Origin: Clostridia bacterium
Lineage (GTDB): Bacteria; Bacillota; Clostridia; Monoglobales; Monoglobaceae
Assembly: GCA_045586925.1 (NCBI GenBank)
Contig: JAZNBG010000035.1
Location: 6,417-70,416, forward strand
DNA length: 64,000 nucleotides
Direction of reading: 5' to 3'
The notes below the pieces were generated by a model that saw only the letters and a list, made by a program, of their open reading frames with translations, was not told where the DNA came from and searched no databases. Below, one piece after another: positions 18,519-40,809 of the stretch (position 1 is the stretch's first letter; each line of letters starts with the position of its first letter). Both the position numbers and the translations under genes were made by a program.

Positions 18519-19166
18519 GTGGATAAAAGACTTGGCGTACAAACTGTAAAAATGGAGCATCCTGTCAATATTCTTTCTGTGGCAAGTGTGGCAGGACAAA
18601 AGGAGTCGCAAGGCCCTTTGGCACAGCATTTTGATATCATTATGGAAGATGCCGAATGGGGCGAGCAAACTTGGGAAAAAACCGAGAGTAAGATGCAAAA
18701 ATCAGCGGTTATACGTGCTGTTGAAAAGGCTAGGGTTGACATTAAGGATATAAACTATCTTTTTGCAGGAGACCTTCTTAATCAGTGTATCAGTTCAACC
18801 TTTGGGCTAATGGATTTTGATATTCCCTTTATGGGAGTTTACGGTGCTTGCTCTACAATGGCAGAGACAATCGGACTTTCGGCAATAGCTATTGACGGCG
18901 GTTTTGCTAGGCTTGCGGCAGCAGTGACGTCAAGTCACTTCTGTACGGCTGAACGGCAGTACAGAAACCCGTTGGAATATGGTGGTCAGCGAACGCCTAC
19001 AGCACAATGGACTGTTACAGGCTCTGGGGCGGCAGTGCTTTCCAAAGAGGGGAAAGGCCCATATGTGACACATTTTACCTCGGGAAAGATTGTTGATTAT
19101 GGCATAAAGGATGCCAATAATATGGGTGCAGCGATGGCACCTGTAAGTGTTAAACTAACACCATAA
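18519..19166 (+). CDS. spoVAD: stage V sporulation protein AD, 5' part, interrupted by the element
   Basis: 207 codons match the SpoVAD N-terminal two-thirds (GACSTMAE, SSHFCTAERQYR, GGQRTP). After ...MGAAMAP it runs into 7 foreign codons (VSVKLTP*) at the left element junction. Confidence 0.9.
   Translation: MDKRLGVQTVKMEHPVNILSVASVAGQKESQGPLAQHFDIIMEDAEWGEQTWEKTESKMQKSAVIRAVEKARVDIKDINYLFAGDLLNQCISSTFGLMDFDIPFMGVYGACSTMAETIGLSAIAIDGGFARLAAAVTSSHFCTAERQYRNPLEYGGQRTPTAQWTVTGSGAAVLSKEGKGPYVTHFTSGKIVDYGIKDANNMGAAMAPVSVKLTP
19140..19166. other. attL: CCTG core plus the element-side half-site ending in arm ACACCATAA
   Basis: The sequence after the last native spoVAD codon (cct) diverges from the 3' part of the gene. 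The 9-bp arm at 19158-19166 is the exact reverse complement of 55684-55692. Confidence 0.7.
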
Positions 19167-19271
19167 GGCGATGTGCTAAATCTCTACAAATTATGCGCTT
19201 TTAAGCCTGATTTTGCATTTTGAGAGGTGATGGTTTAACACTTTTTATTATGGGAAGACGGAGGGGTGAAA

Positions 19272-19625
19272 GTGAGAAAAATTTATACTTATGGGAATGT
19301 ACAAAATTTTATAGAAAGAAGTGATGAAAAACTTAAAAACAAATTTCAAAATATTCTTGCCTATATCTCAAATGAGAAAAACGAACTTCGTGAACCTTAT
19401 GTGAGACATATTTCTCAAAACCGATTTAAAGGACTTTATGAAATAAGACTAAAGGTATCGGGAGCTATGTCAAGAGTTGTCTTTTCAAAGCAAGACGAAA
19501 ATATCATCCTTTTATATGCTTTTTATAAGAATGACAAGAAAGACACCAAAAGAGCACTTGAGCATTCGCTCAGGTTGTTAAATGACACAAGAAAAAATAA
19601 TTACAAGGAGGTACTTATAGCATGA
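19272..19625 (+). CDS. RelE/HigB-type toxin-like protein (Gp49/DUF891 family)
   Basis: The EPYVRHI...GLYEIRLK...RVVF...ILLYAFYK pattern matches phage Gp49/HigB-like toxins. GTG 19272 sits 6 nt after GGAGGGG. Confidence 0.5.
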   Translation: MRKIYTYGNVQNFIERSDEKLKNKFQNILAYISNEKNELREPYVRHISQNRFKGLYEIRLKVSGAMSRVVFSKQDENIILLYAFYKNDKKDTKRALEHSLRLLNDTRKNNYKEVLIA

Positions 19626-20671
19626 GGAAAATATTTGCAGTTAGTATAGTTTTGATAATTCTGTTGCTCGGGAGCGAAGTTTTTGCAGCATATATTGTTT
19701 CAGGTCAGGATATTTATATCAACGGCTCAAAAGCAGAAATGTCAGCAATAAATTTTAATGATAATAATTATGTGAAACTTCGGGATATTACAAAAGCATT
19801 GAATATTGAGATTACATACAATGCAGAAACAAATACTGTTTCAATCAATACCAACAAGCCTTACACAGAGGAAAATCCGAAAGTTGATTACATAAACGGG
19901 AAATCGTATGCAAGAGAAGATTTCACGCAAAAAGCTAATTCCGGTATTTTTAATGATGTGTATACAAGAGATGCTTATAATGCAATCAGGCAATCTATTA
20001 TTGATATTGCAGAAATTACAAATAATACCGATGAGAATGGATATAATGCAAATTATGAGTATGCTCACTTTGTTGATGACACATCTGACGGAATGGGAGA
20101 AACAATAGAAGCAATGAAATCCGTAACAGCAACAATGTTTGGTTATTACAATTTCAGTTTCGGTTATGAGCCAACAATATCAAACTTCTATGAATATCCC
20201 GGATACCGAATTTGCAAACCACAGATACATAAATACTTTGAACCAGCAAACAATGCAACCGACAGCTTTGTTGCAGAGATATCCAATTTTGCTGACCGAG
20301 AAAAAGTCAAACGGATTGCTGATTATATCTGCGAAAGGGTTGCATATAAGAATGAGAATGTTGCAGGAATAAATAAAGTATTTACAGGCACACCTCCTGT
20401 CAATGGAGTATGCGGTACTTATGCAGATGCATTTGTTTATCTTTGCCAACGAGCAGAAATTCCTTGCATATCAGTTGTTGATGATATTCACGCATGGAAC
20501 GAAGTGTATGTTGACGGCAAATGGTACACTACAGATATAAGCTATTATGATGTAGCAAGAACAGATGAATACCTGTTCCCTAAAAACTATCCTCGCACTG
20601 ATATAAACAAACAGAAAACAAATTTTACAAAAGAATTACTTGTTCCTGGAAGTACAAAAAGTACCGATTAA
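19622..20671 (+). CDS. secreted protein: copper-amine-oxidase-N-like stalk domain plus transglutaminase-like Cys-protease core
   Basis: Signal peptide; YVKLRDITKALN stalk-domain motif; a Cys...His...Asp triad context (GVCGTYADAF ... HAWNEVYVDGKWYTTD). Confidence 0.55.
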   Translation: MRKIFAVSIVLIILLLGSEVFAAYIVSGQDIYINGSKAEMSAINFNDNNYVKLRDITKALNIEITYNAETNTVSINTNKPYTEENPKVDYINGKSYAREDFTQKANSGIFNDVYTRDAYNAIRQSIIDIAEITNNTDENGYNANYEYAHFVDDTSDGMGETIEAMKSVTATMFGYYNFSFGYEPTISNFYEYPGYRICKPQIHKYFEPANNATDSFVAEISNFADREKVKRIADYICERVAYKNENVAGINKVFTGTPPVNGVCGTYADAFVYLCQRAEIPCISVVDDIHAWNEVYVDGKWYTTDISYYDVARTDEYLFPKNYPRTDINKQKTNFTKELLVPGSTKSTD

Positions 20672-20809
20672 AAACAAATTTTTAATCATATAGGGGGTTG
20701 CAAAAAAATTATTTTTTGGCCAAATTTTTAAATGTGTAGATATTGAAAAAATTGCACACCCCCTAAATGTGCTAAAAACGCAGTAATACAGGCGTTTTCA
20801 GGATGTGCA

Positions 20810-21140
20810 GAATTGTGAATTTTCAGGAAGATTTTGCACTAGTAGGGAGGGTTGCAAAATAGTCTTGAAAATAAGCACTAAAAGTTGTATCAAAGAACAG
20901 AAGTCGCCAAAGCATTTTTGCAGGGACTGTAGTTAAACATTATAATGTAGTTTTGAGTAAAAAGCAGATAAAAGAATTAAAGTTATTGCAAGAGCCTTGA
21001 AGGAAATAAGGAGTATGAACTCTAGAAATAAACTTGCAAAAGACGGAGTATTAGAGTTAAAACACACAACGCTTTGAAGAAAAAAAGAAAAGCAATCCGG
21101 CACCTTTGAAAGAACAAATCTTTTAAGGGTGCTTTTCATT
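20810..21140 (+). repeat. copy 1 of a ~330-bp diverged direct repeat (promoter-like TTGCAG-17-TATAAT, conserved blocks, terminal intrinsic terminator)
   Basis: Shares ACTAGTAGGGAGGGTTG, AGTCGCCAAAGCATTTTTGCAGGGA, AAAAGACGGAG...AAACACACAACG.TTTGAAG and a terminal hairpin plus T-run with the copy at 27850-28170. Confidence 0.6.
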
Positions 21141-21256
21141 ACTAAGAAGTCGATATAACATTACAGATTATACTCAAACACAAATTAGTAAATCATACTT
21201 GACTAATTTATTTTTATATGCTATAATGTAGATAACCTAAAATGGAGGTCATGTAT

Positions 21257-22648
21257 ATGTTTATAGGCAGAGAAAGAGAGCTTGAAGCTCTGAATAAGCT
21301 TTATAAATCAAATAAATTTGAATTTGCGGTTATCTATGGCAGACGCCGCGTTGGTAAAACTGCGCTCATAAATGAGTTTATAGATAACAAAAAAGCCATA
21401 TATTTTATGGGTGTTGAAAGCAATGCAAAGCAGAATCTTGAAAACTTCTCAAAAAGCATTATGGAGTTTGCAAGTGGTATTGAAACGGAATCCTCTTTCC
21501 TTTCGTTCCAGGCGGCGTTAGAGTATGTATTCAAGCTTGCGGAAAACGAAAGAATCATTCTTGCTATTGATGAATACCCTTATGTGGCTCGTTCATCAAA
21601 AAGCCTTGCATCTACTTTACAACTTCTAATTGATAAATATAAAGATACATCAAAATTGATGCTTATTCTCTGTGGTTCTTCTATGTCCTATATAGAAGAC
21701 CATGTGCTTGCATATAAAGCGCCTCTTTATGGCAGAAGAACAGCACAAATGAAACTTTTGCCATTTGACTTTGAGGAAACATGCAGATATTTCAAAAATC
21801 TATCTGATGAAGATAAAGCACTTATTTATGGCGTTGCAGGTGGCACACCGCAGTACCTTTTGCAGATGGACGATAAATTAAGCGTTGAAGACAATATAAA
21901 AAACACATACTTAAATCCAATTTCATTCTTGTATGAGGAACCAACTAATCTTTTAAAACAAGAAGTGCGTGAACCGGCTATTTACACTGCGATCATTACA
22001 GCTATTGCAACTGGCTCATCAAGAATGTCAGAGATTTCAAGTAAAGTTGGCGAAGATACAAATGTATGTGCAACTTATATTAAAAACTTGATTAATCTTG
22101 GCATTGTTCAGAAAGAAACACCGTATGGTGAAAAGGCATCTCGTAAGTCAGTTTACTCCATTGAGGACAATATGTTCCGCTTCTGGTATCGCTTTGTTCT
22201 TGAAAACAACTCAATCATTGCACGTGGTGCTGCTGATTTGGTTTACAAAAGAATTGAACCACATTTTTCTAACTATATGGGTAAGGTTTTTGAAGAAATT
22301 TGTAAACAGTATCTTTGGAAACAACTTCTTTCCGGTAACTGCCCTGTAGAGTTTACCTCTCTCGGCCGCTGGTGGGGTAATGATCCGAAAGAAAAGAGCC
22401 AAACTGAAATTGATATTATGGGAGAACAGGATAAAAACACAGCTCTCTTTGCAGAATGTAAGTGGACTAACGAAAAGGTTGACCTCGGTGTTTTAGAAAC
22501 ACTTATAAAACGAGGTAATTTGTTCTCATATAAAACAAAGCATTATTACCTGTTCTCAAAATCAGGATTTACAAAAGGTTGTATTGATAAGGCTAACGAG
22601 ATGAGTAATGTAAGTTTGATAGAGTTTGCGGATATGATGGAGGTATAG
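21257..22648 (+). CDS. AAA+ ATPase with a DUF234-type C-terminal region
   Basis: Walker A GRRRVGKT and Walker B ILAIDEYPY; ATG 21257 follows GGAGG. Confidence 0.7.
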   Translation: MFIGRERELEALNKLYKSNKFEFAVIYGRRRVGKTALINEFIDNKKAIYFMGVESNAKQNLENFSKSIMEFASGIETESSFLSFQAALEYVFKLAENERIILAIDEYPYVARSSKSLASTLQLLIDKYKDTSKLMLILCGSSMSYIEDHVLAYKAPLYGRRTAQMKLLPFDFEETCRYFKNLSDEDKALIYGVAGGTPQYLLQMDDKLSVEDNIKNTYLNPISFLYEEPTNLLKQEVREPAIYTAIITAIATGSSRMSEISSKVGEDTNVCATYIKNLINLGIVQKETPYGEKASRKSVYSIEDNMFRFWYRFVLENNSIIARGAADLVYKRIEPHFSNYMGKVFEEICKQYLWKQLLSGNCPVEFTSLGRWWGNDPKEKSQTEIDIMGEQDKNTALFAECKWTNEKVDLGVLETLIKRGNLFSYKTKHYYLFSKSGFTKGCIDKANEMSNVSLIEFADMMEV

Positions 22649-22649
22649 T

Positions 22650-24737
22650 ATGGCTAAGAAAAAGAATAAACATGAAGCATTGTCTGTTGGAAGATTAATT
22701 AACGAAGTTTTAGTCGATCAGCTAGGAATCCCATTTCGAAACATAGTTAATGATACAACTTTTTCAGATTTTACAGGTTCTAAAAGACCAGATATTTTAA
22801 TAGGAAATTTTGAATATACTGGATCAAACAATGAACAATATATAAAAAATCTTGTTGCATATGCAGAAGCAAAAGACATTACATGCAAAGTGGATGATAC
22901 TGAGTGGAAAGATGCGGTAAATCAAGGTAAAGAAAAGGCTGCAAAATTAGGATTACCATTTTTCGGTGTAACAAATTGTAAAACAACATATTTTTACAAT
23001 TTAAAAACCGGAAATAGAATTTCTTTAAACGGTAATGTCATCTATGAATTTCAGACATTGGATGTTTTTAGAATAATAAAAAAGCAATTAACCGAAAAAC
23101 CAAATGTTGATGATATAAAAATAGGTATAGATTCACTATCCTCTGTTTCAGAAGCTGTTTTCAACAAAAAACTTTGGGAGCTAAAAGAAGAATATCGTGC
23201 GATAGATTTCGAAAATAATACACAAAAAATAGATTTTACTGTAGGAATGATTGCGTTAGAATATTATGAAGAAAAAGCTGAGATAGATGGAACTAAAGAT
23301 AATTCTATGCAGTATTGGTCTACATGTAAGGCGATGATTCCCAATCCATATACATATGAAAACTCAAACACAATAACAACGATTTTAGTAACATATATAG
23401 ATAGACTTACTGGCGAAGAGTCGGAGTTTAAAGAATTTTCTCCGCTTTTAAAGAAGGTAAAGGAATTAATAAGCGGTCAGAAACCTATGATTAATTCTAA
23501 ACGTTTGCAATCTATATATTTTATTATTGATTCTATGCGACCTCTGCATGGTACGGGCTTTGACTTGTTCGGTGCAGTGTATGAAAATTTTGCAAACACA
23601 AAAGAGAAGAAGGATTTTGGTGAGTATTTTACAAGGCGACATTATGCACATGTTTTTGCGGAGTTATTGTTGCAGAAAGAAGATATTTTTAATTCCGAAT
23701 ATAAATTTTCTATTTTAGACCCAGCTTGTGGAACTGGCGGAATGCTTACAGAAAGTTTTAAGGTTTTGAAAAACAACTATGAATCTTCGGGTACATTTGA
23801 TCAAGAAGCACAAACTTTTTTGTCCGAAGAGTGCTTTTATGGAATAGATGTAAGAGGAGAAAATATTTCAAGAACCCGTTTAAATATGTTTTTGGTTGGT
23901 GATGGGCACACAAACATGCACTCTGATGACTCATTAAACCCAACAACAAAAACTGGGAAGAAATTTTTGAATAAAAAATATAAATATATCATAACAAACC
24001 CTCCTTATGGACCGGGTACAGAATTAGCAAACACAGATAGTATAAACTCTTATAGGTTCGAAATAGCGTTTATCTGTAGAATTATAGATCTCCTAGAAAG
24101 AAATGGTCAAGCGTGTATAATCACCCCTGATGGCATTTTGGAAAACCCTTCTTTGAAAAAGTTTCGAAATGAGATTTTGCAAACATGTGAAATATATGCA
24201 ATAGTTTCTTTACCCAAGTTTGCTTTTGCACCTTATACAAAAGAAAAAACATACGCATTATTCATTAGAAAACTACATGATAGAGCGTCCTCGGAGCAAA
24301 CCAATAAAAAATTGCCTACTGGGAAATTCCAATCAACTCCAATTTGGATGTATATCATTGATAACGATGGCTTTGCTAATTCTGATAAGAGATTCCCTAC
24401 TAGACTTAGAGATTCAAGTCAAAGATGGCAGCATGATGAGGTTTCGGGTTATGCTGATAGCGAAGGTATAGAAAGAAAAAGTATTCTTGAACAGCGATGG
24501 TTAAATTTTGACGATACAGCTACGGGTGGAACATTGTGGATTGATGAAGATGGCATTGAAGTAAAAATGAGAAAAGGTGGCTTTGTACAAATTGACTCTA
24601 TTCGAAATAATGATTTTTTGACTTTACTTCCAGAATATTATCTAAGACCATATGAACCTAAGTTTATAACAGAGGAACAATTTAATGAAAGTATGGATAA
24701 TATTGAACGTGAGATAAAAGAGTTTTTTGGACTGTAG
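22650..24737 (+). CDS. fused restriction endonuclease / N6-adenine DNA methyltransferase (type IIB BcgI-A-like or type IIG)
   Basis: N-terminal PD-(D/E)xK (RPDILI ... AYAEAKD), MTase motif I ILDPACGTGGML and motif IV IITNPPYG. Confidence 0.7.
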   Translation: MAKKKNKHEALSVGRLINEVLVDQLGIPFRNIVNDTTFSDFTGSKRPDILIGNFEYTGSNNEQYIKNLVAYAEAKDITCKVDDTEWKDAVNQGKEKAAKLGLPFFGVTNCKTTYFYNLKTGNRISLNGNVIYEFQTLDVFRIIKKQLTEKPNVDDIKIGIDSLSSVSEAVFNKKLWELKEEYRAIDFENNTQKIDFTVGMIALEYYEEKAEIDGTKDNSMQYWSTCKAMIPNPYTYENSNTITTILVTYIDRLTGEESEFKEFSPLLKKVKELISGQKPMINSKRLQSIYFIIDSMRPLHGTGFDLFGAVYENFANTKEKKDFGEYFTRRHYAHVFAELLLQKEDIFNSEYKFSILDPACGTGGMLTESFKVLKNNYESSGTFDQEAQTFLSEECFYGIDVRGENISRTRLNMFLVGDGHTNMHSDDSLNPTTKTGKKFLNKKYKYIITNPPYGPGTELANTDSINSYRFEIAFICRIIDLLERNGQACIITPDGILENPSLKKFRNEILQTCEIYAIVSLPKFAFAPYTKEKTYALFIRKLHDRASSEQTNKKLPTGKFQSTPIWMYIIDNDGFANSDKRFPTRLRDSSQRWQHDEVSGYADSEGIERKSILEQRWLNFDDTATGGTLWIDEDGIEVKMRKGGFVQIDSIRNNDFLTLLPEYYLRPYEPKFITEEQFNESMDNIEREIKEFFGL

Positions 24738-24746
24738 GAGGAATAA

Positions 24747-25901
24747 ATGAAATATCAAGTAAAAGATTATCCTATTTGTGATGCTATCTCTTGCATGAGT
24801 GGAAATTCTGGTTTAACAGAGGAATTTATATATAGTACGACACAGATAAAGGGTAAAAGGTATATAGTTTTATCCAGTGCTTTAGAAGAGGAAACAATGA
24901 TGGGCGAAGTTCCGATGTGTACTTTAAACGATAAACCAATTAAAGTCTTTGAAAATAAGGAAGGGCTACTGGTTGCCAGAAATGGCAGAGCCGGGACAAC
25001 AAGATATTTAACCCCAGGGCGATATACAATTAATGATCATGCATATATCCTTTCGGTTAAAAAAGGTTGTCCATATAAAATTGATCTGAGATGGTTGGCT
25101 ATTCAATATAAAACTGAATTTCTTTCATATTCATCAGCTTCAGATAATGGCACATGGAACAAAACTGGCTTTTTTAAAAATGTTACAATAGACGTTCCTG
25201 ATATTGATGAGCAGATACGAATCGTTAATATGGTAGAAAAGGCACAACAAACTATAGAAAAGATAAAAATAATTAAGAAGGATTTGCTTAAAGCATTTGA
25301 ACGCATAATTTCTGTCGAATATTCTAAATATGTTAAACGTAATATACCAATTAATGATGTTTTAGATTGTATGAGTGGCAATTCGGGATTAACATCCGAA
25401 TTCATATATAGCACTTTACATAAGCCAGGTAAAAGATTCAAAGTTTTGTCTGGAGCAACACAAGAAGAGAATTTATTAGGAGAAATCCCCAAATGTGCAA
25501 TAGACGATAAAATGATTAAAACTTTTGAAGATAAAGAAGGTCTCCTAGTTGTTAGAAAAGGGAAAGCAGGTGCTACAAAGTTTCTGCCAAAGGGTAACTA
25601 TACAATAAATGATGATGCATATATCTTGTCTGTAAAGCCGGACTTTGAAAAGTTGGTTGATATTAGGTGGATAAAGATTCATTGTAAAACAGACTTTATG
25701 AATTATTCATCATCTTCGGACAATGGTACATGGAACAAAACAGGCTTTTTTAAAAATGTTACAATAGACATTCCAGCGTTGGAAGAACAAAAACGTGTTG
25801 CAGCAACATATGAGAAGGCCGAAAAGTATTTTGAAAAAATACAAAAAATCGAAAAGCAACTAACAGAATTGTTGGATAAAAGGCTCTGTTCAGAATTGTA
25901 A
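24747..25901 (+). CDS. R-M specificity (S) subunit with two target-recognition domains
   Basis: Two internally repeated halves, each ending in an HsdS-type conserved helix (NVTIDVPDIDEQIRIV / NVTIDIPALEEQKRVA). Confidence 0.8.
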   Translation: MKYQVKDYPICDAISCMSGNSGLTEEFIYSTTQIKGKRYIVLSSALEEETMMGEVPMCTLNDKPIKVFENKEGLLVARNGRAGTTRYLTPGRYTINDHAYILSVKKGCPYKIDLRWLAIQYKTEFLSYSSASDNGTWNKTGFFKNVTIDVPDIDEQIRIVNMVEKAQQTIEKIKIIKKDLLKAFERIISVEYSKYVKRNIPINDVLDCMSGNSGLTSEFIYSTLHKPGKRFKVLSGATQEENLLGEIPKCAIDDKMIKTFEDKEGLLVVRKGKAGATKFLPKGNYTINDDAYILSVKPDFEKLVDIRWIKIHCKTDFMNYSSSSDNGTWNKTGFFKNVTIDIPALEEQKRVAATYEKAEKYFEKIQKIEKQLTELLDKRLCSEL

Positions 25902-26018
25902 TGATAGTCAGATGTGTGAAGTTTTTTGATTTGCATATACCAAGAGCTCAAAAAAACATAGACTTTAGATAAGATTGATGTTTAAGTGATTGAACTCTTC
26001 TTACAGGAGGGAATATAA

Positions 26019-26660
26019 ATGTGGAGAAAGTTCCGTTGGGATATGTTTGTTACATCATTTATCCCATTATGGTTTTCTATTATTGTTTTTAATCTATGGA
26101 AAGTAGTAGAAATTTCAATTGATGTTTGGGATAAGAAAAGCAAGTACATTGATAACATAGTAAATTGCATTGAAAAAAGCTATGTTGAACTCGGTGTTAT
26201 GCTTGTTGTTATTTTACTTGTTTGGATTAGTATTAGTGGAATTAGCTCTTTTATAAAGGAACGTAAGTCTACAGAAAATAATCCTAAAGGGAAAATAATA
26301 CGAGCAACTAAAGCTAACAAACTTTCTTCTGAGTTTTTGTTAGCATACATACTTCCTATGATAGCTTTTGACTTTGGAGAAATAAAGGATATAGTTTTGT
26401 TTGTTATATACTTTTCTGTATTGGCCTTTTTGTGCATAAGAAACAATAATATTTATACAAATATTCTTTTGGAATTTAAGGGTTATAAAATGTACAACTG
26501 CGATATTGAGTGTTCGGTGCTTGAAAAGAAAAAGATTTATCACGACAGCTTGATAATAAGTGAAGTAGACTTAACTCAGATGGAAGAAAATGAGATACCA
26601 TATTGGGATTTTGACAAATATATTTATATAGCAATAAACGAGGTGGAAGATAGTGAGTAA
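26019..26660 (+). CDS. hypothetical 4-TM membrane protein (first gene of a two-gene module)
   Basis: 213 aa with four predicted TM helices; GGAGGG RBS. Confidence 0.5.
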   Translation: MWRKFRWDMFVTSFIPLWFSIIVFNLWKVVEISIDVWDKKSKYIDNIVNCIEKSYVELGVMLVVILLVWISISGISSFIKERKSTENNPKGKIIRATKANKLSSEFLLAYILPMIAFDFGEIKDIVLFVIYFSVLAFLCIRNNNIYTNILLEFKGYKMYNCDIECSVLEKKKIYHDSLIISEVDLTQMEENEIPYWDFDKYIYIAINEVEDSE

Positions 26661-27585
26661 AACCGTACTAAAGACAATATGTGAATGTGGAAAAAATGGT
26701 CAATATTCATGGAGTTTGTTTTTCTTCAAAACAGACAAAAGAAATAAACAGCCTTATAAAATGTTTAAGGTTCGTTTTAAAAACGCTAATTATCTTACTA
26801 CATATGCAGCAAACTTAATTGAGACTGTTGATAAGTTTCAAATTGAACCTATAAGCGATGTCCAGGATTACGATGGTGAGAATTCAAAAGTATCATGTGA
26901 TAAGATTGAATTGTCTAATCAACTAATTAGCGAACAGTGGACCTTATTCACCGAAGCTGTTGCAAGTGCCGCTGATGGTAAAGCCGACGGAAGAATTAAT
27001 GGTTATATATTGTACGGACAATCTTTAAAAGAAGATGACAAGCCTATTACACTTGTTAAAGTGGCAAATCCGATAACAAAGCTTACAAACAAAAAAAGTG
27101 TAATATTCACGACTACTGCAGATGATGAACTGGAATTAATGTCTGATGATGTATGTAGGCTTTATCTTACTACTGACTTTATTGTTTTTGATGGAACCAT
27201 GTATACATTCAACCATACATTTGAAACAATCTTTAATCTTGAGAAAACAATGGCTAAGGTGAAGAATGATGCTATAGAAGAGATATTAAGTACAAATGCT
27301 TTTTCTAATCCTGAAGAATTTAAAGCATTGGCAGGAAAATACAAATCATCACGCACCTTTATAACTCTTAAAAAAGAACGTGTAAATAGAATTAAAGATA
27401 AACGCAGTAGGAAGAAAGTCGCAGAAATGCTCAAACTTCCACTTGGTAGTGATGGAGAGTTTAATATAACAAAACCAGAAGATGCGTCTCTTTTATTGCG
27501 ATATCTGTGTTTTAAAATATTCCAGGATAATGAGACAATGGATGTGCTTGAGGCTAATACTGTAAACAAATTAAATCTTGCATAA
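26653..27585 (+). CDS. hypothetical soluble protein (second gene of the two-gene module)
   Basis: 310 aa; overlaps the upstream gene by 8 nt, so the two are translationally coupled. Confidence 0.5.
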   Translation: MSKTVLKTICECGKNGQYSWSLFFFKTDKRNKQPYKMFKVRFKNANYLTTYAANLIETVDKFQIEPISDVQDYDGENSKVSCDKIELSNQLISEQWTLFTEAVASAADGKADGRINGYILYGQSLKEDDKPITLVKVANPITKLTNKKSVIFTTTADDELELMSDDVCRLYLTTDFIVFDGTMYTFNHTFETIFNLEKTMAKVKNDAIEEILSTNAFSNPEEFKALAGKYKSSRTFITLKKERVNRIKDKRSRKKVAEMLKLPLGSDGEFNITKPEDASLLLRYLCFKIFQDNETMDVLEANTVNKLNLA

Positions 27586-27849
27586 GGTTCAATAAAAAGA
27601 CATGGAGAAATCAAACTCCACAGCTTTGCAGGAATATATGTTTTCTGAAACAAAATGAATATAAAATATACATTCATTTTAGGTGAGAAATATACAAATT
27701 TTACTCCCGAGGGGGTTGGGAAAAACGGAAATTTTAGCGTTTTTTGAAAAGTAGTCAAAAAAGCATAACAACTCCACATATCAAATGCCGCTTATCCCTA
27801 GTAAAATAGCCACATTCAGGACTTGTAAAAATTTAATTTTCAGACCACT

Positions 27850-28170
27850 TTTCCCACTAGTAGGGAGGGTTGGGGAAAACGCTTTTTGGTGTAATATTAA
27901 AAACGGTAAAAAATACACAAGTCGCCAAAGCATTTTTGCAGGGAATGTAGTTAGACGTAACGAGGTAATTTTGAGTGAAAACCAGTTAAACGTACAAAAG
28001 TAGTTACAAGAGCTTTGGAGGAAATAGCGAGAACAAAACTTGCGGATATAGTTAGCAAAAGACGGAGCAATAAAGTTGAAACACACAACGATTTGAAGGA
28101 ATAAAACATAAATAAATTCAGCACCGTTGAAAGATTTAAAATCTTTTGAGGGTGCTTTTTCTATAAACAA
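27850..28170 (+). repeat. copy 2 of the ~330-bp diverged direct repeat, ending in an intrinsic terminator
   Basis: Same conserved blocks as 20810-21140. It ends in a GCACCGTTGAAAGATTT...AAATCTTTTGAGGGTGC hairpin followed by TTTTTC. Confidence 0.6.
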
Positions 28171-28233
28171 AATAATAACACCTGTCCGGTGATATAATAT
28201 CATAAAAAGCCATTATGGTTTGGAGGTGTTGTT

Positions 28234-28908
28234 ATGACATATGGATATGTTAGAGTGTCCTCAAGTGATCAAAATGTAGACAGACAATTAATTGAAATGG
28301 AAGGATTAACAATCCCCGTACAAAATATTTTTATAGATAAACAATCGGGTAAAGACTTTAAGCGCCCACAATATATTAAATTGCTTGAGGTTCTTAAAAA
28401 AGGTGATTTATTATATGTAAAGTCAATAGACCGTTTGGGGCGAAACTATAAAGAAATACTGGAACAATGGCAAATGCTGACTAAAGAAATGGAAGTTGAT
28501 GTTGTTGTAATAGATATGCCACTTTTAGATACACGAACTGCTAAAGATTTGCTCGGTACATTCATAGCGGACTTGGTTTTACAAGTGCTTTCTTTTGTGG
28601 CTCAAAGCGAGCGTGAAAACATAAAGAAACGCCAAGAAGAAGGCATAAAAGCTGCCAGACTTCGTGGCGTTAAATTTGGACGACCTGTTATTCCCGTGCC
28701 GGATAATTTTGAGTTTCTTGTTGAACAATGGGAACATGGGGAAATATCCGCCGATTATGTGGCTCAGAAAAGCGAAATGAGTGAATCAACCTTTTATAGA
28801 AGATTAAAAGAATTAAGGAAAAACACAAAACAAAAATCACTGTCAAATGGTACACTTTTTGACAGTGATTATTTTTTGTTGATATATACTGTTAAAAACA
28901 GATTTTAA
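28234..28908 (+). CDS. small serine recombinase (resolvase/invertase family)
   Basis: YGYVRVSSSDQNVDRQ catalytic-Ser N-terminus and a C-terminal HTH; GGAGGTG RBS. Confidence 0.85.
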   Translation: MTYGYVRVSSSDQNVDRQLIEMEGLTIPVQNIFIDKQSGKDFKRPQYIKLLEVLKKGDLLYVKSIDRLGRNYKEILEQWQMLTKEMEVDVVVIDMPLLDTRTAKDLLGTFIADLVLQVLSFVAQSERENIKKRQEEGIKAARLRGVKFGRPVIPVPDNFEFLVEQWEHGEISADYVAQKSEMSESTFYRRLKELRKNTKQKSLSNGTLFDSDYFLLIYTVKNRF

Positions 28909-29552: not shown

Positions 29553-29637
29553 ATATACAAATACAACAAATCATTGACAACTTCATTATATTATTTTAAA
29601 GCAGTGGTAGAATATATACATAAAGGAGTTGTCGAAT

Positions 29638-30477
29638 ATGAAAAGAATTACAAACGAATTAATTAAGAAATTCAGAGAATATCTGTTAAGTGAAGAAAAG
29701 GCAGTAGCAACGATAGAAAAGTATATCCACGATGTTCTTGTGTTTATGACTTGGCTTGCAGGAGCAGAGGTTACCAAAATGGCAGTTCTTGAATATAAAC
29801 AGGAACTAACTGAGAAGTATGCTCCCACAAGTGTTAATGCCGCGCTTTCTTCGTTGAATAGTTTCTTTGTTTTCAATGAATGGTACGATTGTAAAGCGAA
29901 AGCTGTGAAAATTCAAAAGCAGATTTTTGCCAATAAAGAGAAGGAATTATCAAAGGCTGAATACGAAAGACTGCTTTTAGCGGCAAAACAAAAGAAAAAT
30001 CAAAGACTTTACTTTCTTATGCAGACGATATGCAGCACCGGGATACGTGTATCTGAGTTGAGATTTATAACAGTTGAAGCTGTTTTAAGAGGACAGGCAC
30101 ATATTAACTGTAAAGGTAAGATGCGGGTTGTTATTCTCACAAATCAACTCTGTAAAATGCTGAAGAACTATATAAAAGATAATAAAATAATAAGTGGCTC
30201 GGTTTTTGTTACTAAAACAGGTAAGCCACTTGATCGTTCTAATATATGGTCGGATTTGAAAAAACTCTGTGAATGTGCGGGAGTAGATAAAGAAAAAGTT
30301 TTTCCACATAATTTTAGGCATTTGTTTGCGCGCACTTATTATACTTTGCAAAAAGATATAGTTCGTCTTGCTGATATCCTCGGTCATTCCAATGTAAACA
30401 CTACAAGGATTTACACAATGGAAAGCGGAGAGATGCATCGCAAGCAATTGCAAAAACTTGGATTACTGATATGTTAA
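29638..30477 (+). CDS. tyrosine site-specific recombinase (XerC/D-like integrase family)
   Basis: Core-binding domain plus the catalytic R...HxxR...Y pattern (GIRVSEL, HNFRHLFA, RIYTM). Confidence 0.85.
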   Translation: MKRITNELIKKFREYLLSEEKAVATIEKYIHDVLVFMTWLAGAEVTKMAVLEYKQELTEKYAPTSVNAALSSLNSFFVFNEWYDCKAKAVKIQKQIFANKEKELSKAEYERLLLAAKQKKNQRLYFLMQTICSTGIRVSELRFITVEAVLRGQAHINCKGKMRVVILTNQLCKMLKNYIKDNKIISGSVFVTKTGKPLDRSNIWSDLKKLCECAGVDKEKVFPHNFRHLFARTYYTLQKDIVRLADILGHSNVNTTRIYTMESGEMHRKQLQKLGLLIC

Positions 30478-30645: not shown

Positions 30646-30847
30646 TAGAGTTTCGATGAAATTTTACAAAATTCTCTCAAATCATTGACATTTCGATAAT
30701 AATATGTTACCATATTAAAGTATAATTATGTATAGAGCAGTTGTGCGTACCACATAAGAGAAATTATGTTGTAAGTGGAGTTTATTTTTTTTGAGTAAAA
30801 TTATGACCGACTGGTCGGTATAGTGTAAACAAAAAGAGGTGTTACTA

Positions 30848-31432: not shown

Positions 31433-32569
31433 ATGGCTATAATTGATAGAATAAAATATGATGGTCCACAAGATGCTTCGCCATGGTTGATTCACAAATA
31501 TCCAAGTGAAGAATTTGTTTTAGGTTCGCAGTTGATTGTAAATCAGGGACAAGAGGCTTTGTTCTTCAAAGGTGGAGAAGCACTCGATTTATTTGGTGCG
31601 GGAACTCACACTTTACATACGGGAAATCTACCCTTACTGAAAAAAATAGTTAATTTACCGTTTGGTGGAGAAACACCGTTCTCAGCAGAAATTTATTATA
31701 TTAATAAAACTTCAAAATTAGATATGAATTGGGGTACTGCAAACCCATTTCAGCTTGAAGATCCCAAATATGGTCTTATATTATCTATAAGATCACACGG
31801 CAAGTATGGATTGCGTATTACGGATTCAAGAATGTTTGTTAATGAGCTTGTTGGCGCTATTCCTAATGGTGCAACAGTAAACTATCCGTTTGTTGCAAGT
31901 TATTTTAGTGGTTTGTTAACTACATATGTAAAAACTGTTATTTCTAATTTTATGATAAAACAAAAGATTTCTTTTCTTGAGGTAACGGCGTACTTAAGGG
32001 AATTATCGGAAGAATGCCAAAAAGAGATTTCAAACGAGTTCGATAAATATGGTGTTGAAATACAAAATTTCTTTATTGAAGCTATTTCACCTCCAAAAGA
32101 AGAATTTGAAAAGCTTCGCACATATAAAGAAGAGTTGTCTTTGGGAAATGATTTCTATAAACAACGTCGTTCTTTTGATGTATTAGAAAAATTGGCAGAT
32201 AACCCCAATGCAGGTGGAATGGCTAATGCAGGAATCGGATTGGGTATGGGCTTAGGGGTCGCTCCTAATATGGGAAATATTTTTGGTGGAATTGGTGAAA
32301 ATACCATGAATATCAATGGTCAGACAGGCGCGCAAGGAAAAGTATGCCCTAAATGTTCTGCCCAGGTTGCTGAAGGATTAAAGTTCTGTGGTAATTGTGG
32401 GGAGAGGATTAGCAATTCGTTGATATGTCCATCATGCAATCATGAAAATCCTGAAAATACTAAGTTCTGTGGCAACTGTGGTCAAAAACTTGTAAACAAA
32501 TGCAGCGAATGTGGAACAGAGAACGATTTAGGTCAAAAATTCTGCGGTAATTGTGGAAATAAACTGTAA
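31433..32569 (+). CDS. SPFH/band-7-like protein with three C-terminal zinc ribbons
   Basis: N-terminal SPFH-like region (DGPQDASPWLIHKYP...) and three CxxC...CGNCG ribbons at the C-terminus. Confidence 0.65.
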   Translation: MAIIDRIKYDGPQDASPWLIHKYPSEEFVLGSQLIVNQGQEALFFKGGEALDLFGAGTHTLHTGNLPLLKKIVNLPFGGETPFSAEIYYINKTSKLDMNWGTANPFQLEDPKYGLILSIRSHGKYGLRITDSRMFVNELVGAIPNGATVNYPFVASYFSGLLTTYVKTVISNFMIKQKISFLEVTAYLRELSEECQKEISNEFDKYGVEIQNFFIEAISPPKEEFEKLRTYKEELSLGNDFYKQRRSFDVLEKLADNPNAGGMANAGIGLGMGLGVAPNMGNIFGGIGENTMNINGQTGAQGKVCPKCSAQVAEGLKFCGNCGERISNSLICPSCNHENPENTKFCGNCGQKLVNKCSECGTENDLGQKFCGNCGNKL

Positions 32570-32589
32570 AAGAGGTGAAAAGACAGAAT

Positions 32590-35500
32590 ATGGGCAAATA
32601 TATAGCATATTTTTACATAGACAATCAATTAATGCAATTTGATCTCGACTTGTTGCTAAATAATTGTGTTGATAATTATTTAGGTGAATCAATTCTTCCG
32701 GTAGGAAGTAAGCAACTATTTCCCATTAAAACAGAGAATAAAAAATATTACCTTTATGGGAATTTTAGCAATTGGAAAATTGTTTGTAACGGAAGTGAAG
32801 TCGGAGAAAAAGTTGAAATATCACATGGAAGTTACATCAATTTTTCATCTAAGAAAAGCTCCTATTCTGTTTTGATATCAGAAACAGCTAACTTTAGTAT
32901 ATATAATAATTGTTTGGAAATTCAAAAAAATCAGAATATCTTTATAGGTAGGGCTCCGGAGAGCAACATTGTAATAGATATTAACGATAGTGTATCAAGA
33001 AAACATGCAGCAATAAGATTAGATGCATCAGGCAATGGCTTTGTTGAGGATTTGTCACGTAAAACAGGTGTTTTCCTAAATGGAAAAAGAATTGTTTCAA
33101 GCGAAATAAAATGTGGGGACATTATTCATATAATGGGTGTGTCTATATGTTTTATGGGGACATTTCTTGTTGTTCCTAAAAATATTGTTACAAACGGGAT
33201 GAAAGAGGTCAAGTCTTTTAATGTTGCGCAGCCAACAGATAAAGAGCTTGAAGATACTTATGCAAGGACACCAAGAATATTAAAGTCATTGGATAGAAAC
33301 AAAATAATTATAGATGCACCTACACAGCCTCAAAAATCCAAACAACAACCTTTTATTCTGGTTGCGGGACCTTCTGCGACAATGGCATTAGGTATGATGG
33401 CTAGTTTTGGAGTAACTTTAGCTAATGCACTGAATGGTGGAAACATATCTTCAACTATTACCGGTGGTGTAATGGTTATAAGTATGTTGTTGGGTTCTTT
33501 AATGTGGCCTTCTTTACTTAGAAATTACACTAAAAGACAAGAAATCGCAAATGAAAAGTATAGAGTAGAGAAATATAAATACTATTTGTCGGAAAAAGAA
33601 GCAGAAATAAGAAAATCCTACGAAAGAAATTGCAGAATATGGAATGAAAATCTTTTGCCAGCACCCGATAAATTGTCTCAAATTGTTTTTGAACGAGGTA
33701 TAAATCTTTGGGAAAGAACATTTACAGATGAGGACTTTCTGCAGGTTAGACTTGGAATAGGTGCCAAATTATTTGAAACAGAAATCCAACATCCAAATAA
33801 AGGCTTTACATTGCATGATGACGCATTGATAGATGAAGCAATAAACTTAGCAAACAAATATAAAATGTTAGAAAATGTTCCAATTAGCGTATCATTAATA
33901 AACCAAAGAACAGTTGGAATAGTTGGAGAAAGTGAAAAAATACATAATACACTTAGATGTATGATTCTAAACACGGTTGCACTTCACTCACCTGAGGATG
34001 TAAAGATTTGTGTTATTTGTAATGAACTTCAAATTGAGCAGGTAGAGTGGATAAAAGATTTGCCTCATTGTTGGGATTCTGCTAAAACAACACGATATTT
34101 TGCAACTAATAATATGGAAGCACAAAGACTGCTCAATGATATGGATGAGAAAATTCAAGAAAGAGAAGAATTGATTGACAAAGATGCAATCAGAACCCCT
34201 CATACCATAGTTGTTGTTTTGGATGAAAAAGTAGTTGAAAATATACCTTTTTATAGATACTTAATTGATTCCAAAAACAATGTAGGCATATCCTCTATTT
34301 TTATTGCAGAACACTTTAATAGAATACCTAAAGAGTGTACTGCAATAATTCAAAACGAAAAAGATATATGCGGAATTTATACAAAGAATGAAAACGATAA
34401 TAGATTTGTTTGTTTCAAATCTGATGAGTTTAAACTGACGGATGCTAAAAAAATCAGTCAGAGTATGTCTGAGATTCCGGTTAAGGTTGAGAAAACAAAA
34501 CTTAGTGTTCCTAACCGTGTATCATTTTTGGATATGTATAAGGTGGGAAATATTGAGAATCTTTCAATTGAACAAAAATGGGCAAATAATATGTCAGACA
34601 AAACGCTTGCTGTTCCTATTGGAATAAAAGCAGGCGGAGAATTGTTCTGTTTGGATATACACGAAAAACACCATGGTTGTCACGGATTAGTTGCCGGAAT
34701 GACAGGCTCGGGTAAAAGTGAATTTTTACAGGCATTTATATTATCAGCATTAATTAATTTTAGTCCTAATGAAATTGCATTTGTACTGGTGGACTTTAAA
34801 GGTGGAGATATGGCTCGACCATTTTTGAAGGTTCCGCATCTTTCTGCAACTATATCAAATCTATCCGAAAATATTTTGTATAGAGCATTGATTTCTTTGG
34901 AGGCAGAAGTAAAATCAAGACAAAAAATATTTAATGAAGCCGCATCATTGTTGGGCATTGATAAAATTGATATTAATTCATACCATAAATATTTTAAGGA
35001 AGGTAGATTAACATTACCATTACCACACTTAGTAATTGTAATAGATGAGTTTGCACAATTGAAATCTCAACAACCTGAATTCATGGCTAAACTTGTTGAA
35101 ATAGCTCAGGTCGGAAGAAGTTTAGGAATTCATCTGATATTAGCAACGCAAAAACCGAGCGGTGTTGTTGATCCGCAAATATGGAGCAACTCAAGATTTA
35201 AAGTATGTTTGAAAGTGTTGGATAAGCAGGATAGTACGGAAATGATAAACAGACCGGATGCTGCTTTAATTAAATCTCCTGGACGTGCTTATGTTCAGGT
35301 CGGCTATGATGAAATTTTCGAACAGTTACAGTCAGGTTATAGCGGTGCTGATTATGTTGAACAAAAAGAGTATACAGATGATGAAGATGTAACAATAAAA
35401 CTTATAGATTCTGCTGCTATGCCAATTAGAAGCGCTCGTAGTATATCAGGAAATCTTAAGAGTGGTAAGACACAGTTAGAAGAAACTATAAATAAGATTG

Positions 35501-37239
35501 TTGAAATCGCTGATGAAAAGGGATTAAGTGTAAAGCCTTTGTGGTTGGAGCCACTAAAGGAAACAATATATCTTACAGAATGTGTTGATAAGTTATACAC
35601 AGATTCTTTCGAAATTTGTTGGGATCAAGATTTAGATATCTCAACTACATTGGGAATCATCGATATAATTGAAACACAGAAACAGATACCTTTAAATATT
35701 TCATTGCCGCAGAGCGGACATATTGCTATTTATGGTTCTTCTGGAACTGGAAAGACTACATTGTTACAAACAATTATTTTCTCGCTGGCAACAAAATATT
35801 CACCGGAACTGTTAAACATTTTTGCTTTTGATTTTGGCGGACGCAATTTAGGGAATTTATCGCTTCTTCCGCATTGCGTTAACGTAGCTTTTGGCGATGA
35901 AGAGGACAAAATTTCATATATGTTTGAGCAGATACTTGAATGTATCGAATCAAGAAAAGTTTTGTTTGCAAAAAATAACTGCGCTACATATGAATCGTAT
36001 TTAGCAACAACAAAAAATAAACTTCCTGCAGTTCTTTTGGTGCTGGATAACTATGCTATATTCAGAGAAAAAATGTTCAAGAATGAAGATGATTTAGTTA
36101 GAATTGTTGCTAATGCAAAGGCGTACGGAATATATTTGATCGTTACAGGAAATAGCAAGAATGCAATTTATTACAAAGTTTCTGAACACATATCAAATAA
36201 TATTACTTTGCGTATGAATGATAAAATGAATTACCGTGATATATTAAATGTTTCTATACCTATTGAACCTGATAATATCAAAGGAAGAGGGTTGACAGTC
36301 TTTAATAAAAAAGCGGTAGAAATTCAGGCAGCACTTCCGTTGGAAGCAGAGAACGAGGCTGACAGAGCTGAAAAGCTGAACAAAATATACACTGCTATGT
36401 CACAGGCATATAACGGAACCAATGTGGCTAGTGTTTACTCTTCTTCAACTGAAAATAGTAAATCTAATATTTCAGAAGAAAATAGTACAATTAAAACATC
36501 TGTTATTTCAACAAGGAAAGTTCCGTCAACACTTCCTATTGTTAATGCTGATGATCATACAATTGTTTGTGGTTCTTCTGTTGTAAGCGGTCAGCTTCAA
36601 GGGTTTGAAATGCGTAATACTACAAATGTATTTATAGGTGTTAATGGTTCTGAATATCCAAATCGATTGCTTGAAAGAATTATTAATTTAAACAATGCTG
36701 CATTTTACGATATTTGCTCCTCATCATCGTTAGAAGGTGAATTTATTACATCGGTAAATACGGAATCTGAAATTCATGAAATGCTTCAAAATCTCGTTTA
36801 TGAAGTTAATGATCGAGAGAGTGAACTTCAAATGTTGCAGGCTGCGAATGTCGATGATTCTGAAGTATACGGATATATGCAAAAATATAAGAGGATTTTC
36901 TTGTTGATAAGAAGTTTCTCTAAGTTCTATGATGAGATAAGTGATGATGATTTAAAATTGTTGTTGACAATGTTGAAGAAGCAACGTCATCTAGGTATAT
37001 ATATTCTCACCATAGATGATATTGAAAGTATAGAACCATATTGTGATACAGCTTTATACATTGAATTAATAAAAACCGAAAAAGGCGTTGTTCTTGGTGG
37101 CAATATTAGTGATAAACAGGCGGCTCGATTGTGTAAACAATTCTCTGAAATACCTGTTGCAGAAAGAAACAAGAAACTGTCTGATAACAATGCATTTATG
37201 TATAATGATGCAAAATGGTCAGTAATTGAAATCAATTAA
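32590..37239 (+). CDS. essC: type VII secretion (T7SSb) FtsK/SpoIIIE-family ATPase EssC/YukB-like with an N-terminal FHA domain
   Basis: FHA signature (GR...SRKHA...NG), TM helices, then three FtsK-like domains with Walker A GMTGSGKSEF and GSSGTGKTTL. Start may be GTG 32575 or ATG 32590. Confidence 0.85.
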   Translation: MGKYIAYFYIDNQLMQFDLDLLLNNCVDNYLGESILPVGSKQLFPIKTENKKYYLYGNFSNWKIVCNGSEVGEKVEISHGSYINFSSKKSSYSVLISETANFSIYNNCLEIQKNQNIFIGRAPESNIVIDINDSVSRKHAAIRLDASGNGFVEDLSRKTGVFLNGKRIVSSEIKCGDIIHIMGVSICFMGTFLVVPKNIVTNGMKEVKSFNVAQPTDKELEDTYARTPRILKSLDRNKIIIDAPTQPQKSKQQPFILVAGPSATMALGMMASFGVTLANALNGGNISSTITGGVMVISMLLGSLMWPSLLRNYTKRQEIANEKYRVEKYKYYLSEKEAEIRKSYERNCRIWNENLLPAPDKLSQIVFERGINLWERTFTDEDFLQVRLGIGAKLFETEIQHPNKGFTLHDDALIDEAINLANKYKMLENVPISVSLINQRTVGIVGESEKIHNTLRCMILNTVALHSPEDVKICVICNELQIEQVEWIKDLPHCWDSAKTTRYFATNNMEAQRLLNDMDEKIQEREELIDKDAIRTPHTIVVVLDEKVVENIPFYRYLIDSKNNVGISSIFIAEHFNRIPKECTAIIQNEKDICGIYTKNENDNRFVCFKSDEFKLTDAKKISQSMSEIPVKVEKTKLSVPNRVSFLDMYKVGNIENLSIEQKWANNMSDKTLAVPIGIKAGGELFCLDIHEKHHGCHGLVAGMTGSGKSEFLQAFILSALINFSPNEIAFVLVDFKGGDMARPFLKVPHLSATISNLSENILYRALISLEAEVKSRQKIFNEAASLLGIDKIDINSYHKYFKEGRLTLPLPHLVIVIDEFAQLKSQQPEFMAKLVEIAQVGRSLGIHLILATQKPSGVVDPQIWSNSRFKVCLKVLDKQDSTEMINRPDAALIKSPGRAYVQVGYDEIFEQLQSGYSGADYVEQKEYTDDEDVTIKLIDSAAMPIRSARSISGNLKSGKTQLEETINKIVEIADEKGLSVKPLWLEPLKETIYLTECVDKLYTDSFEICWDQDLDISTTLGIIDIIETQKQIPLNISLPQSGHIAIYGSSGTGKTTLLQTIIFSLATKYSPELLNIFAFDFGGRNLGNLSLLPHCVNVAFGDEEDKISYMFEQILECIESRKVLFAKNNCATYESYLATTKNKLPAVLLVLDNYAIFREKMFKNEDDLVRIVANAKAYGIYLIVTGNSKNAIYYKVSEHISNNITLRMNDKMNYRDILNVSIPIEPDNIKGRGLTVFNKKAVEIQAALPLEAENEADRAEKLNKIYTAMSQAYNGTNVASVYSSSTENSKSNISEENSTIKTSVISTRKVPSTLPIVNADDHTIVCGSSVVSGQLQGFEMRNTTNVFIGVNGSEYPNRLLERIINLNNAAFYDICSSSSLEGEFITSVNTESEIHEMLQNLVYEVNDRESELQMLQAANVDDSEVYGYMQKYKRIFLLIRSFSKFYDEISDDDLKLLLTMLKKQRHLGIYILTIDDIESIEPYCDTALYIELIKTEKGVVLGGNISDKQAARLCKQFSEIPVAERNKKLSDNNAFMYNDAKWSVIEIN

Positions 37240-37255
37240 ATAGGAGGTGTATAAT

Positions 37256-38044: not shown

Positions 38045-38045
38045 A

Positions 38046-38303: not shown

Positions 38304-38317
38304 GGAGTGTAAAAAAT

Positions 38318-38614: not shown

Positions 38615-38632
38615 GAATTTGGAGGTGGAAAT

Positions 38633-38743: not shown

Positions 38744-38809
38744 AGATTAACTTAGGGTTATAAAATAATTATTATAACAAAATTATTTTTCGAAAGGAGC
38801 AAATTTATT

Positions 38810-39121: not shown

Positions 39122-39145
39122 ATAAAATTTTAGGAGGATTTTAAA

Positions 39146-40791: not shown

Positions 40792-40809
40792 AAAAAGGAG
40801 TGAATTTAA

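Follow-up and report, generated by a model that had tools for sequence, protein, structure and literature searches.

Why should a set of anti-phage defence genes be bracketed by two diverged direct repeats, one of them next to a gene for a small serine resolvase? This question is raised by a 64-kb stretch of Clostridia bacterium DNA (contig JAZNBG010000035.1 of assembly GCA_045586925.1, positions 6,417 to 70,416), hereafter the window, in whose coordinates all positions are given unless another locus is named; L-numbers denote related loci or contigs. The analysis led to a reading to which we assign a probability of about one half: either repeat represents one copy of a conserved boundary module, non-coding and with an insulator or regulatory role, located in a defence hotspot of a mobile element that interrupts the sporulation gene spoVAD.

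The repeat pair was readily recovered. A repeat search yielded co-linear direct families 7018-7023 nt apart (122 nt at 80% identity, 51 nt at 86%, 23 nt at 91% and 21 nt at 95%), and BLASTN of copy 2 against the window gave 73.9% identity across 348 nt (E=1.3e-48); in a full-length global alignment the copies are 64% identical. For both the 26-mer AAGTCGCCAAAGCATTTTTGCAGGGA and the 18-mer CACTAGTAGGGAGGGTTG, exactly two occurrences were counted in the 64 kb, where chance would give 0.00 and 0.03. The first-pass annotation of this DNA had described a direct pair of about 330 bp: the pair is real and beyond chance, and its length has to be raised to about 450 nt per copy, since another G-rich motif (20692 and 27710), some 120-140 nt upstream of the limits given there, is where the similarity begins. 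Four matches to the pattern GGRGGGTTGSNRAAA were found in the window (0.15 expected), always within the two copies. The near-identical blocks quoted in that annotation are exact, and the other elements it listed were found in place: a hairpin followed by a T-run at the end of both copies (21099-21133, with 15 pairs, and 28120-28156), a promoter-like TTGCAG-17-TATAAT in copy 1 (20918-20946), the resolvase gene beside copy 2 (Pfam Resolvase, 6e-28), and a short open reading frame (ORF) in copy 1 alone (20 codons, 21015-21077), the ATG of which is missing from the orthologous copies of L002 and L031. It had also judged the repeats to be non-coding, and this holds: reading frames differ between the copies, 1-2-nt indels are common, and the ORFs proposed by gene callers are inconsistent and lie on either strand. 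Protein coding on either strand was rejected in view of the frame differences, the indels and the mostly non-synonymous nature of the changes.

Read on the plus strand, a complete module consists of a G-rich motif A, a likewise G-rich block B with a hairpin or inverted repeat, a promoter-like block C, about 185 nt of untranslated sequence that includes a 40-nt conserved block D, and a strong intrinsic terminator T (Table 1). A and B were also compared as possible equivalent hairpins, and a consistent hairpin was found in B alone; tandem sub-repeats of about 150 nt inside each copy were rejected, self-alignment scores being no higher than those of shuffled sequences, and only the A/B motif of about 15 nt recurs.

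The comparison with related loci covered about 14 module copies from a narrow clade, the further copies coming from contigs found via resolvase homologues. The window has the order transglutaminase-like gene (TG), full module, ATPase, methylase, specificity subunit (S), Kiwa, full module, resolvase (Res). L031, like L002, has TG, full module, ATPase, GmrSD, methylase, two genes, a segment termed U0 with a full module, and Res. L050 has ATPase, a 226-aa gene, GAPS4, a 360-aa gene, U0, a fused A/B followed by C, D and T, and Res. L033 has TG, PDC-S01, two genes, A and B alone, a full module and Res. L057 has TG, NACHT on the opposite strand, PDC-S01, a copy reduced to A, B and C, a 442-aa gene, a full module and Res. 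L059 has DndE, a helicase, further genes, Fic, U0 with A and B, a full module and Res. In L003 the Fic cargo is that of L059 (96% amino acid identity) and is followed by a copy resembling copy 1. The cargo of the window (22650-27585) is thus replaced by other defence genes in L031, L050, L033, L057 and L059, and the stretch from TG to Res holds at least six different defence cargo sets among the relatives, which identifies it as a defence hotspot. Full or partial module copies, all in the same orientation, sit between the cargo units, so that the occurrence of the same repeat beside other cargo in related elements, proposed as a check in the first-pass annotation, was borne out.

U0 is itself conserved and non-coding (GGAGG...CACCTCCAGCCTTAAA), contains an inner hairpin, and is located directly after the last cargo gene in several relatives. 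It precedes the module in L031 (9290-9400), L049/L050 (L049, 2760-2930), L059 (6170-6330) and L003 (5560-5760, minus strand). In the window it is reduced to a remnant near 27600-27640.

Alignment of the copies separated them into two lineages, 76 diagnostic columns apart: c2-type copies, to which copy 2 belongs, always precede the resolvase gene, and c1-type copies occur in varying places. A c2-type copy was found before the 224-aa resolvase in L031-33 and L047-61 wherever upstream sequence is present; a contig end cuts L047 and L048. Copy 1 has orthologues in L002 (90% identity) and L031. Because the diagnostic columns split the two lineages across loci, copies 1 and 2 are an old paralogous pair and not a recent insertion duplication.

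Neither neighbouring gene accounts for the module. The possibility that the repeat is the 5' region of the ATPase gene was rejected: Tn916-like elements carry the ATPase (89% identity) with the same promoter and without the repeat. Nor is it a feature of the resolvase family: in conjugative elements, homologues with 79-83% identity are preceded by a 138-nt spacer that lacks the repeat. Since ATPase and resolvase homologues occur elsewhere without the module, it belongs to this element family. Its known range is narrow. The 20-mer of block C was present in two of 185,579 species genomes, a metagenome-assembled genome (MAG) of an Oscillospiraceae from goat (L002) and a Clostridia MAG (L003, with a shortened copy). 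JGI metagenomes gave 27 matches, each of only 20-37 nt around the 19-mer query. No repeat match was obtained by BLASTN in phage and plasmid collections, and viral contigs gave none except for one 16-mer in a giant-virus contig (L001), which was taken as chance.

The whole repeat region is housed in a 36,569-bp insertion (19144-55712) in spoVAD. The two parts of the gene match profile positions 1-207 (18519-19166) and 201-328 (55697-56104), and in-silico joining of 19143 to 55713 at a shared CCTG restored a 338-aa SpoVAD with a one-stretch Pfam match (1-328/329). A large serine recombinase of 560 aa (domains Resolvase, Recombinase and Zn_ribbon_recom; 53898-55580) is encoded 117 nt before the 3' spoVAD fragment. 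L033 has the same spoVAD insertion, and the 5' part of its SpoVAD is only 57% identical. No report of a spoVAD-interrupting element was found in the literature. The spoVA operon of model spore-formers is expressed in the forespore, not in the mother cell. Such expression would make a developmental excision of the element heritable.

Conservation within the module, expressed as mean pairwise identity, is concentrated in blocks: 0.87-0.88 for B, 0.88-0.91 for C, about 0.80 for the TTTGAGT motif, 0.82-0.89 for D and 0.91 for the terminator, against 0.4-0.7 for the stretches between them. The 18-mer within B is the sole long run invariant across the nine full copies. In most pairs c2 copies are 79-87% identical, compared with 60-72% at 4-fold degenerate sites of the resolvase gene. 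The modules represent an undescribed family of non-coding sequences with visible constraint.

Block B forms a hairpin or inverted repeat in both lineages, with arms TTTTGCAC-N11-GTTGCAAAA in c1-type and TTTTCCCAC-N11-GTTGGGGAAAA in c2-type copies, the two forms differing by G:C to C:G and U:A to C:G changes. In the alignment 96.7% of cells were paired and three pairs had changed on both sides; none of 500 shuffles reached this, and slid controls gave 32-74%. The terminator, a G+C-containing hairpin followed by a T-run, was recognised in 10 copies, among which its stem varies by compensatory and wobble changes; in L003 an unrelated terminator occupies the same place. In either copy the terminator follows genes that point in its own direction, and a separate promoter-like site for the gene that comes next, ATPase or resolvase, is located shortly beyond it.

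A -10 sequence 17 nt after TTGCAG, giving a good sigma-A-type match, was found in the c1-type copies of the window (TATAAT), L031 and L057 (TACAAT); in the c1-type copy of L002 a 1-nt deletion weakens the promoter. In L057 a truncated c1-type copy stops 80 nt past the -10, right at the ribosome binding site of the 442-aa gene. This arrangement is the best indirect evidence that block C may work as a promoter.

We propose that the module would act as a transcriptional insulator between cargo units, and that the c1-type module would in addition serve as a promoter, giving a short RNA in the window and driving a cargo gene in L057. The invariant core of B could be the recognition site for a factor of the element. 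Cargo turnover would proceed by general recombination, homologous and illegitimate, between related elements, with modules and backbone genes as homology anchors, and not through the resolvase acting on two copies.

The pattern of exchange bears on this last point. The ATPase gene is kept at 94-97% amino acid identity in three relatives, the genes after it change, and in other relatives cargo lies upstream of a c1-type copy. What is exchanged is therefore not the whole stretch from repeat to repeat, because the ATPase is retained while the later genes change. Homology between the window and its relatives breaks at the edges of the modules, at points within them and at the end of the ATPase gene (Table 1). 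Resolvase genes of L059 and L060 are 99.7% identical and their c2 copies only 87.5%, a contrast that indicates recombination within the region. The first-pass annotation had raised the possibility that the cassette is excisable or exchangeable. Exchangeability was supported by the number of cargo sets; a repeat-to-repeat unit was not, and excision by the resolvase found no support, as no hybrid, empty site or shared resolvase-type site was seen.

Several observations weigh against an insulator or regulatory boundary module. The sample amounts to only about 14 copies from a narrow clade, and over their full length the c1 copies of the window and L031 are no more identical (0.757) than the 4-fold degenerate sites of the ATPase gene (0.751). 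The compensatory changes in B count as one or two evolutionary events only, because the variation tracks the c1 and c2 lineages. As c2-type copies have no recognisable -10, one function for both copies is not obvious, and the 18-nt core of B, the most constrained piece, is not accounted for by an insulator or promoter role. Homology breakpoints at the module edges could partly be an artefact, since any conserved DNA looks like a boundary beside variable DNA. What is said of promoter activity, a short RNA and read-through is deduced from the sequence.

A second reading holds that the repeats are primarily regulatory RNA genes, either for a trans-acting small RNA (sRNA), some 185 nt long and started at the c1-type promoter, or for a structured 3' untranslated region (3'-UTR) element that includes the B hairpin, the boundary position being secondary. 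It accommodates the succession of promoter, about 185 nt and terminator in c1-type copies, the conservation of TTTGAGT and D inside the putative transcript, and the fold of c1 (z = -2.6 to -3.1). G-U pairs in B occur on the plus strand alone and include one invariant U-G and the series U-A, U-G, C-G, which hints at RNA. However, some 60 nt separate B from the -35 downstream of it, which places B outside a transcript driven by that promoter, and c2-type copies have no -10. The predicted folds of copies 1 and 2 differ, z for copy 2 is only -1.4 to -1.5, and no complementary target of block D was found in the window. RNAalifold applied to the putative transcript gave a stem-loop in D and the terminator, with covariation terms of +0.07 and -0.51 kcal/mol, and the terminator alone was consistent. 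No Rfam family reached its gathering score on the whole window; up to E 10 the best match had 27.8 bits against a threshold of 48 (in the terminator region), and another had 23.4 against 52.6, in one copy only. The first-pass annotation had favoured a structured small RNA or a protein-binding site and had called for a covariation analysis. Covariation support for a small RNA was limited to the terminator and the B hairpin, B being located upstream of the putative promoter, and in the rest the covariation term is about zero. We consider a primary role as RNA genes rather unlikely.

It is distinctly unlikely that the repeats are a functionless relic of an old intergenic segmental duplication, kept only for the terminator. 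The low full-length identity of the two copies (64%), the drift or replacement of much of the A region and the truncated, fused or shortened copies in several relatives speak for a relic. Yet B, C and D clearly exceed the adjacent 4-fold degenerate sites in conservation, the 18-nt core does not vary among the nine full copies, changes in the arms of B are compensatory, and both lineages are kept in several genomes.

That the repeats are recombination sites, with the copies as junctions of an inserted defence cassette, is improbable for the serine resolvase and for the nearby tyrosine recombinase. The direct orientation of the copies and the presence of full or A-B-only copies between cargo units in every relative speak for it, as do two recombinase genes conserved beside c2 and the form of B, an imperfect palindrome of 28-31 bp with a centre identical in all copies; in L033, L059, L060 and L061 a c1-type A-B is fused to a full c2, which could be a deletion scar. 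Yet among the 14 copies none was a left-c1/right-c2 hybrid, and no empty site was found; the only sign of gene conversion between c1 and c2 was a c1-like patch of two columns in L031_c2, and gene conversion or hybrid formation was rejected. The arms of B always match within a copy, contrary to a crossover at the centre, and the A-B/c2 junction is not at homologous positions. A search for res subsites gave no set of two or three inverted pairs of a common half-site of about 12 bp: block B is the sole palindrome, its arms differ between the copies, and motif A does not consist of that half-site in inverted pairs. As to position, copy 2 does come close to the resolvase gene, with some 70 nt left to the start codon, but copy 1 adjoins no recombinase gene, and the promoter palindrome of the resolvase gene, GGTGATATAATATCA, falls outside the repeated part; this palindrome is unique in the window, with no partner near copy 1. 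Resolvase homologues of conjugative elements lack such a site. For the tyrosine recombinase, an obvious substrate is at hand in the invertible segment 30486-30772. Finally, exchange boundaries include the end of the ATPase gene, and the cargo units have promoters of their own.

A more far-reaching version of the recombination-site reading, which we regard as very improbable, would make the modules landing and exit sites of a cassette-acquisition system with the palindrome of B as the crossover, where defence cassettes would be stacked and swapped by the conserved trio of resolvase, YpsA and tyrosine recombinase encoded next to c2; such a device would be integron-like, with a new type of mechanism, and located in an element that interrupts a sporulation gene. 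A diversity-generating retroelement template/variable pair, a retron and an IS110 bridge RNA were considered separately and rejected, there being no reverse transcriptase or matching recombinase nearby and the mismatches not being adenine-specific.

A small peptide (leader or micro-protein) is extremely improbable: a TTG-started 29-codon ORF (MEEIAR..KVETHNALKE) is open in most c2-type copies and a 20-26-codon ORF in copy 1, but the frames differ between c1-type and c2-type copies, frameshifts interrupt L002 and L031_c2, most substitutions between c2-type copies are non-synonymous, the TTG has no usable Shine-Dalgarno spacing, and the ATG of copy 1 is missing from its orthologues.

Table 1. 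Features of the repeat region and its surroundings, with the homology breakpoints between the window and its relatives.
Feature	Positions	Strand	Remarks
Transglutaminase-like secreted protein gene (TG)	19622-20671	+	left backbone flank of the hotspot
Homology breakpoint	20659-20690		5' edge of copy 1
Copy 1, c1-type module	20688-21140	+	non-coding, between the transglutaminase-like and ATPase genes; nhmmer span 20670-21248
Motif A, copy 1	20692-20706	+	AGGGGGTTGCAAAAA; G-rich; GGRGGGTTGSNRAAA pattern
Block B, copy 1	20832-20859	+	hairpin/inverted repeat TTTTGCAC-TAGTAGGGAGG-GTTGCAAAA; invariant 18-mer 20837-20854
Homology breakpoint	20870-20881		just past the B hairpin
Block C, copy 1	20901-20946	+	TTGCAG (20918-20923), 17-nt spacer, TATAAT (20941-20946)
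Putative untranslated transcript, copy 1	20952-21138	+	about 185 nt, TTTGAGT to terminator; block D (21037-21079) inside
Homology breakpoint	20972		past the conserved TTTGAGT
Intrinsic terminator, copy 1	21099-21138	+	15 pairs and T-run; G-C to A-U and wobble changes across copies
ATPase_2/DUF234 gene (PADLOC PDC-S27)	21242-22648	+	own promoter 21199-21227
Homology breakpoint	22617-22639		end of the ATPase gene
Variable cargo of the window	22650-27585	+	N6-methylase (695 aa), specificity subunit, KwaA and KwaB (Kiwa)
Homology breakpoint	27624-27674		5' edge of copy 2
Copy 2, c2-type module	27706-28160	+	directly upstream of the resolvase promoter
Block B, copy 2	27849-27879	+	hairpin TTTTCCCAC-TAGTAGGGAGG-GTTGGGGAAAA; invariant 18-mer 27855-27872
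Homology breakpoint	27865		inside B of copy 2
Block C, copy 2	27919-27950	+	-35-like TTGCAG kept; AACGAG replaces the -10
Block D, copy 2	28056-28098	+	conserved block
Intrinsic terminator, copy 2	28120-28161	+	hairpin and T-run
Small serine resolvase gene (Res), 224 aa	28234-28908	+	palindrome GGTGATATAATATCA at its promoter, 28188-28202

Upstream of copy 1 the transglutaminase-like gene is preceded by a Gp49-like gene. The latter, of the Gp49/HigB-like toxin family (19266-19625), shares its last 4 nt with the beginning of the transglutaminase-like gene and has no adjoining helix-turn-helix antitoxin gene. The ATPase_2/DUF234 gene (PDC-S27-like) belongs to a group of more than 120 database clusters at 89% identity or higher; homologues in L062-L070 also mark the edge of Tn916-like elements, where they have the same promoter and a type I restriction system as neighbour, and the gene appears to be a very widely spread single-gene module.

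Downstream of copy 2 the small resolvase gene is followed by a YpsA/SLOG gene and by a gene for an Xer-like tyrosine recombinase (282 aa, 29629-30477). The last 24 codons of the resolvase gene (28828-28908) cross a terminator-like inverted repeat (28828-28847, 28858-28877), and the homologues of conjugative elements have 200 aa; the C-terminal extension may be due to read-through of a former terminator. Right after the tyrosine recombinase gene lies the invertible segment, 287 bp long and delimited by 25-nt inverted repeats (30486-30510/30748-30772, 96% complementary). It contains a promoter-like site, TTGACA-17-TACCAT (30685-30713), facing TetR, SPFH and EssC-like genes, and is flipped in L033, L049 and L050 relative to the window; it looks like a phase-variable promoter switch.

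Further into the element, the cargo at 31433-45585 includes an SPFH/zinc-ribbon protein, a PP2C phosphatase, two Ser/Thr kinases and a 1554-aa FHA and FtsK/SpoIIIE (EssC-like) ATPase, with adjoining small ORFs, the L033 counterparts of which carry WXG100. This cargo is type VII secretion-like, combined with signalling functions. A region of about 1.1 kb without convincing ORFs (51560-52670) lies upstream of a second tyrosine recombinase gene (52675-53535) and contains diverged direct repeats of about 90-100 nt (51619-51722, 51929-52016); close counterparts of this second recombinase, and of a 43-codon ORF in the same stretch (52381-52512), are present in L003.

New anti-phage systems are often discovered in the defence hotspots of mobile elements, and the one described here adds a little-studied setting, a spoVAD-interrupting element of gut and rumen Clostridia. 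The modules, chiefly the invariant 18-mer CACTAGTAGGGAGGGTTG, provide a sequence handle for fetching more cargo variants from metagenomes. They could reveal how elements keep often-replaced neighbouring gene sets transcriptionally apart, or regulate them; site-specific cassette exchange, if true, would be a new mechanism of gene capture.

Among known systems, 3'-UTR-derived sRNAs and orphan promoter-to-terminator sRNA genes resemble the c1-type module in having an internal promoter in the tail of an upstream operon, a shared terminator and a transcript of about 185 nt, which is putative here; unlike such genes, the module shows no covariation and has no predicted target, and its second copy is without a -10. 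The res sites of Tn3/gamma-delta, Sin and beta recall the position of copy 2 directly upstream of a resolvase gene, with a partner copy in direct orientation. The module differs from them in the lack of two or three dyad subsites with a shared half-site, the arms of its sole palindrome differing between copies; homologous resolvases occur elsewhere without it, and the resolvase-promoter palindrome is without a second copy.

In integron attC arrays and SCC-type (staphylococcal cassette chromosome) tandem arrays (PMC11470126), as here, co-oriented repeats with one imperfect palindrome part cargo units near recombinase genes. Unlike an integron, the element has no IntI-type integrase, attI or common promoter Pc: the nearby tyrosine recombinase is Xer-like and stands beside an invertible segment, and the cargo genes have promoter-like sites of their own. 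The modules are not attC sites either, being about 450 nt long with a promoter-like block and a terminator and palindromic over only 28-31 nt. Neither hybrid junctions nor empty sites were seen, and the breakpoints are not confined to the repeats, in contrast to integron and SCC arrays.

The host element resembles skin in splitting a sporulation gene and in having a large serine recombinase at its edge, next to the 3' fragment (bioRxiv 10.1101/2022.02.25.481979), and gin in its non-phage content and several recombinases (PMC5595907); it differs from both in its target, spoVAD. The TG-to-Res stretch resembles the defence hotspots of P2/P4 (Rousset et al., PMC9122126) and those of integrative conjugative elements, which share with it a fixed slot, conserved flanks and alternative anti-phage systems. 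Unlike these hotspots, it is carried by a spoVAD-interrupting element of gut and rumen Clostridia, its landmarks include repeated conserved non-coding modules, and these split it into at least two adjacent slots.

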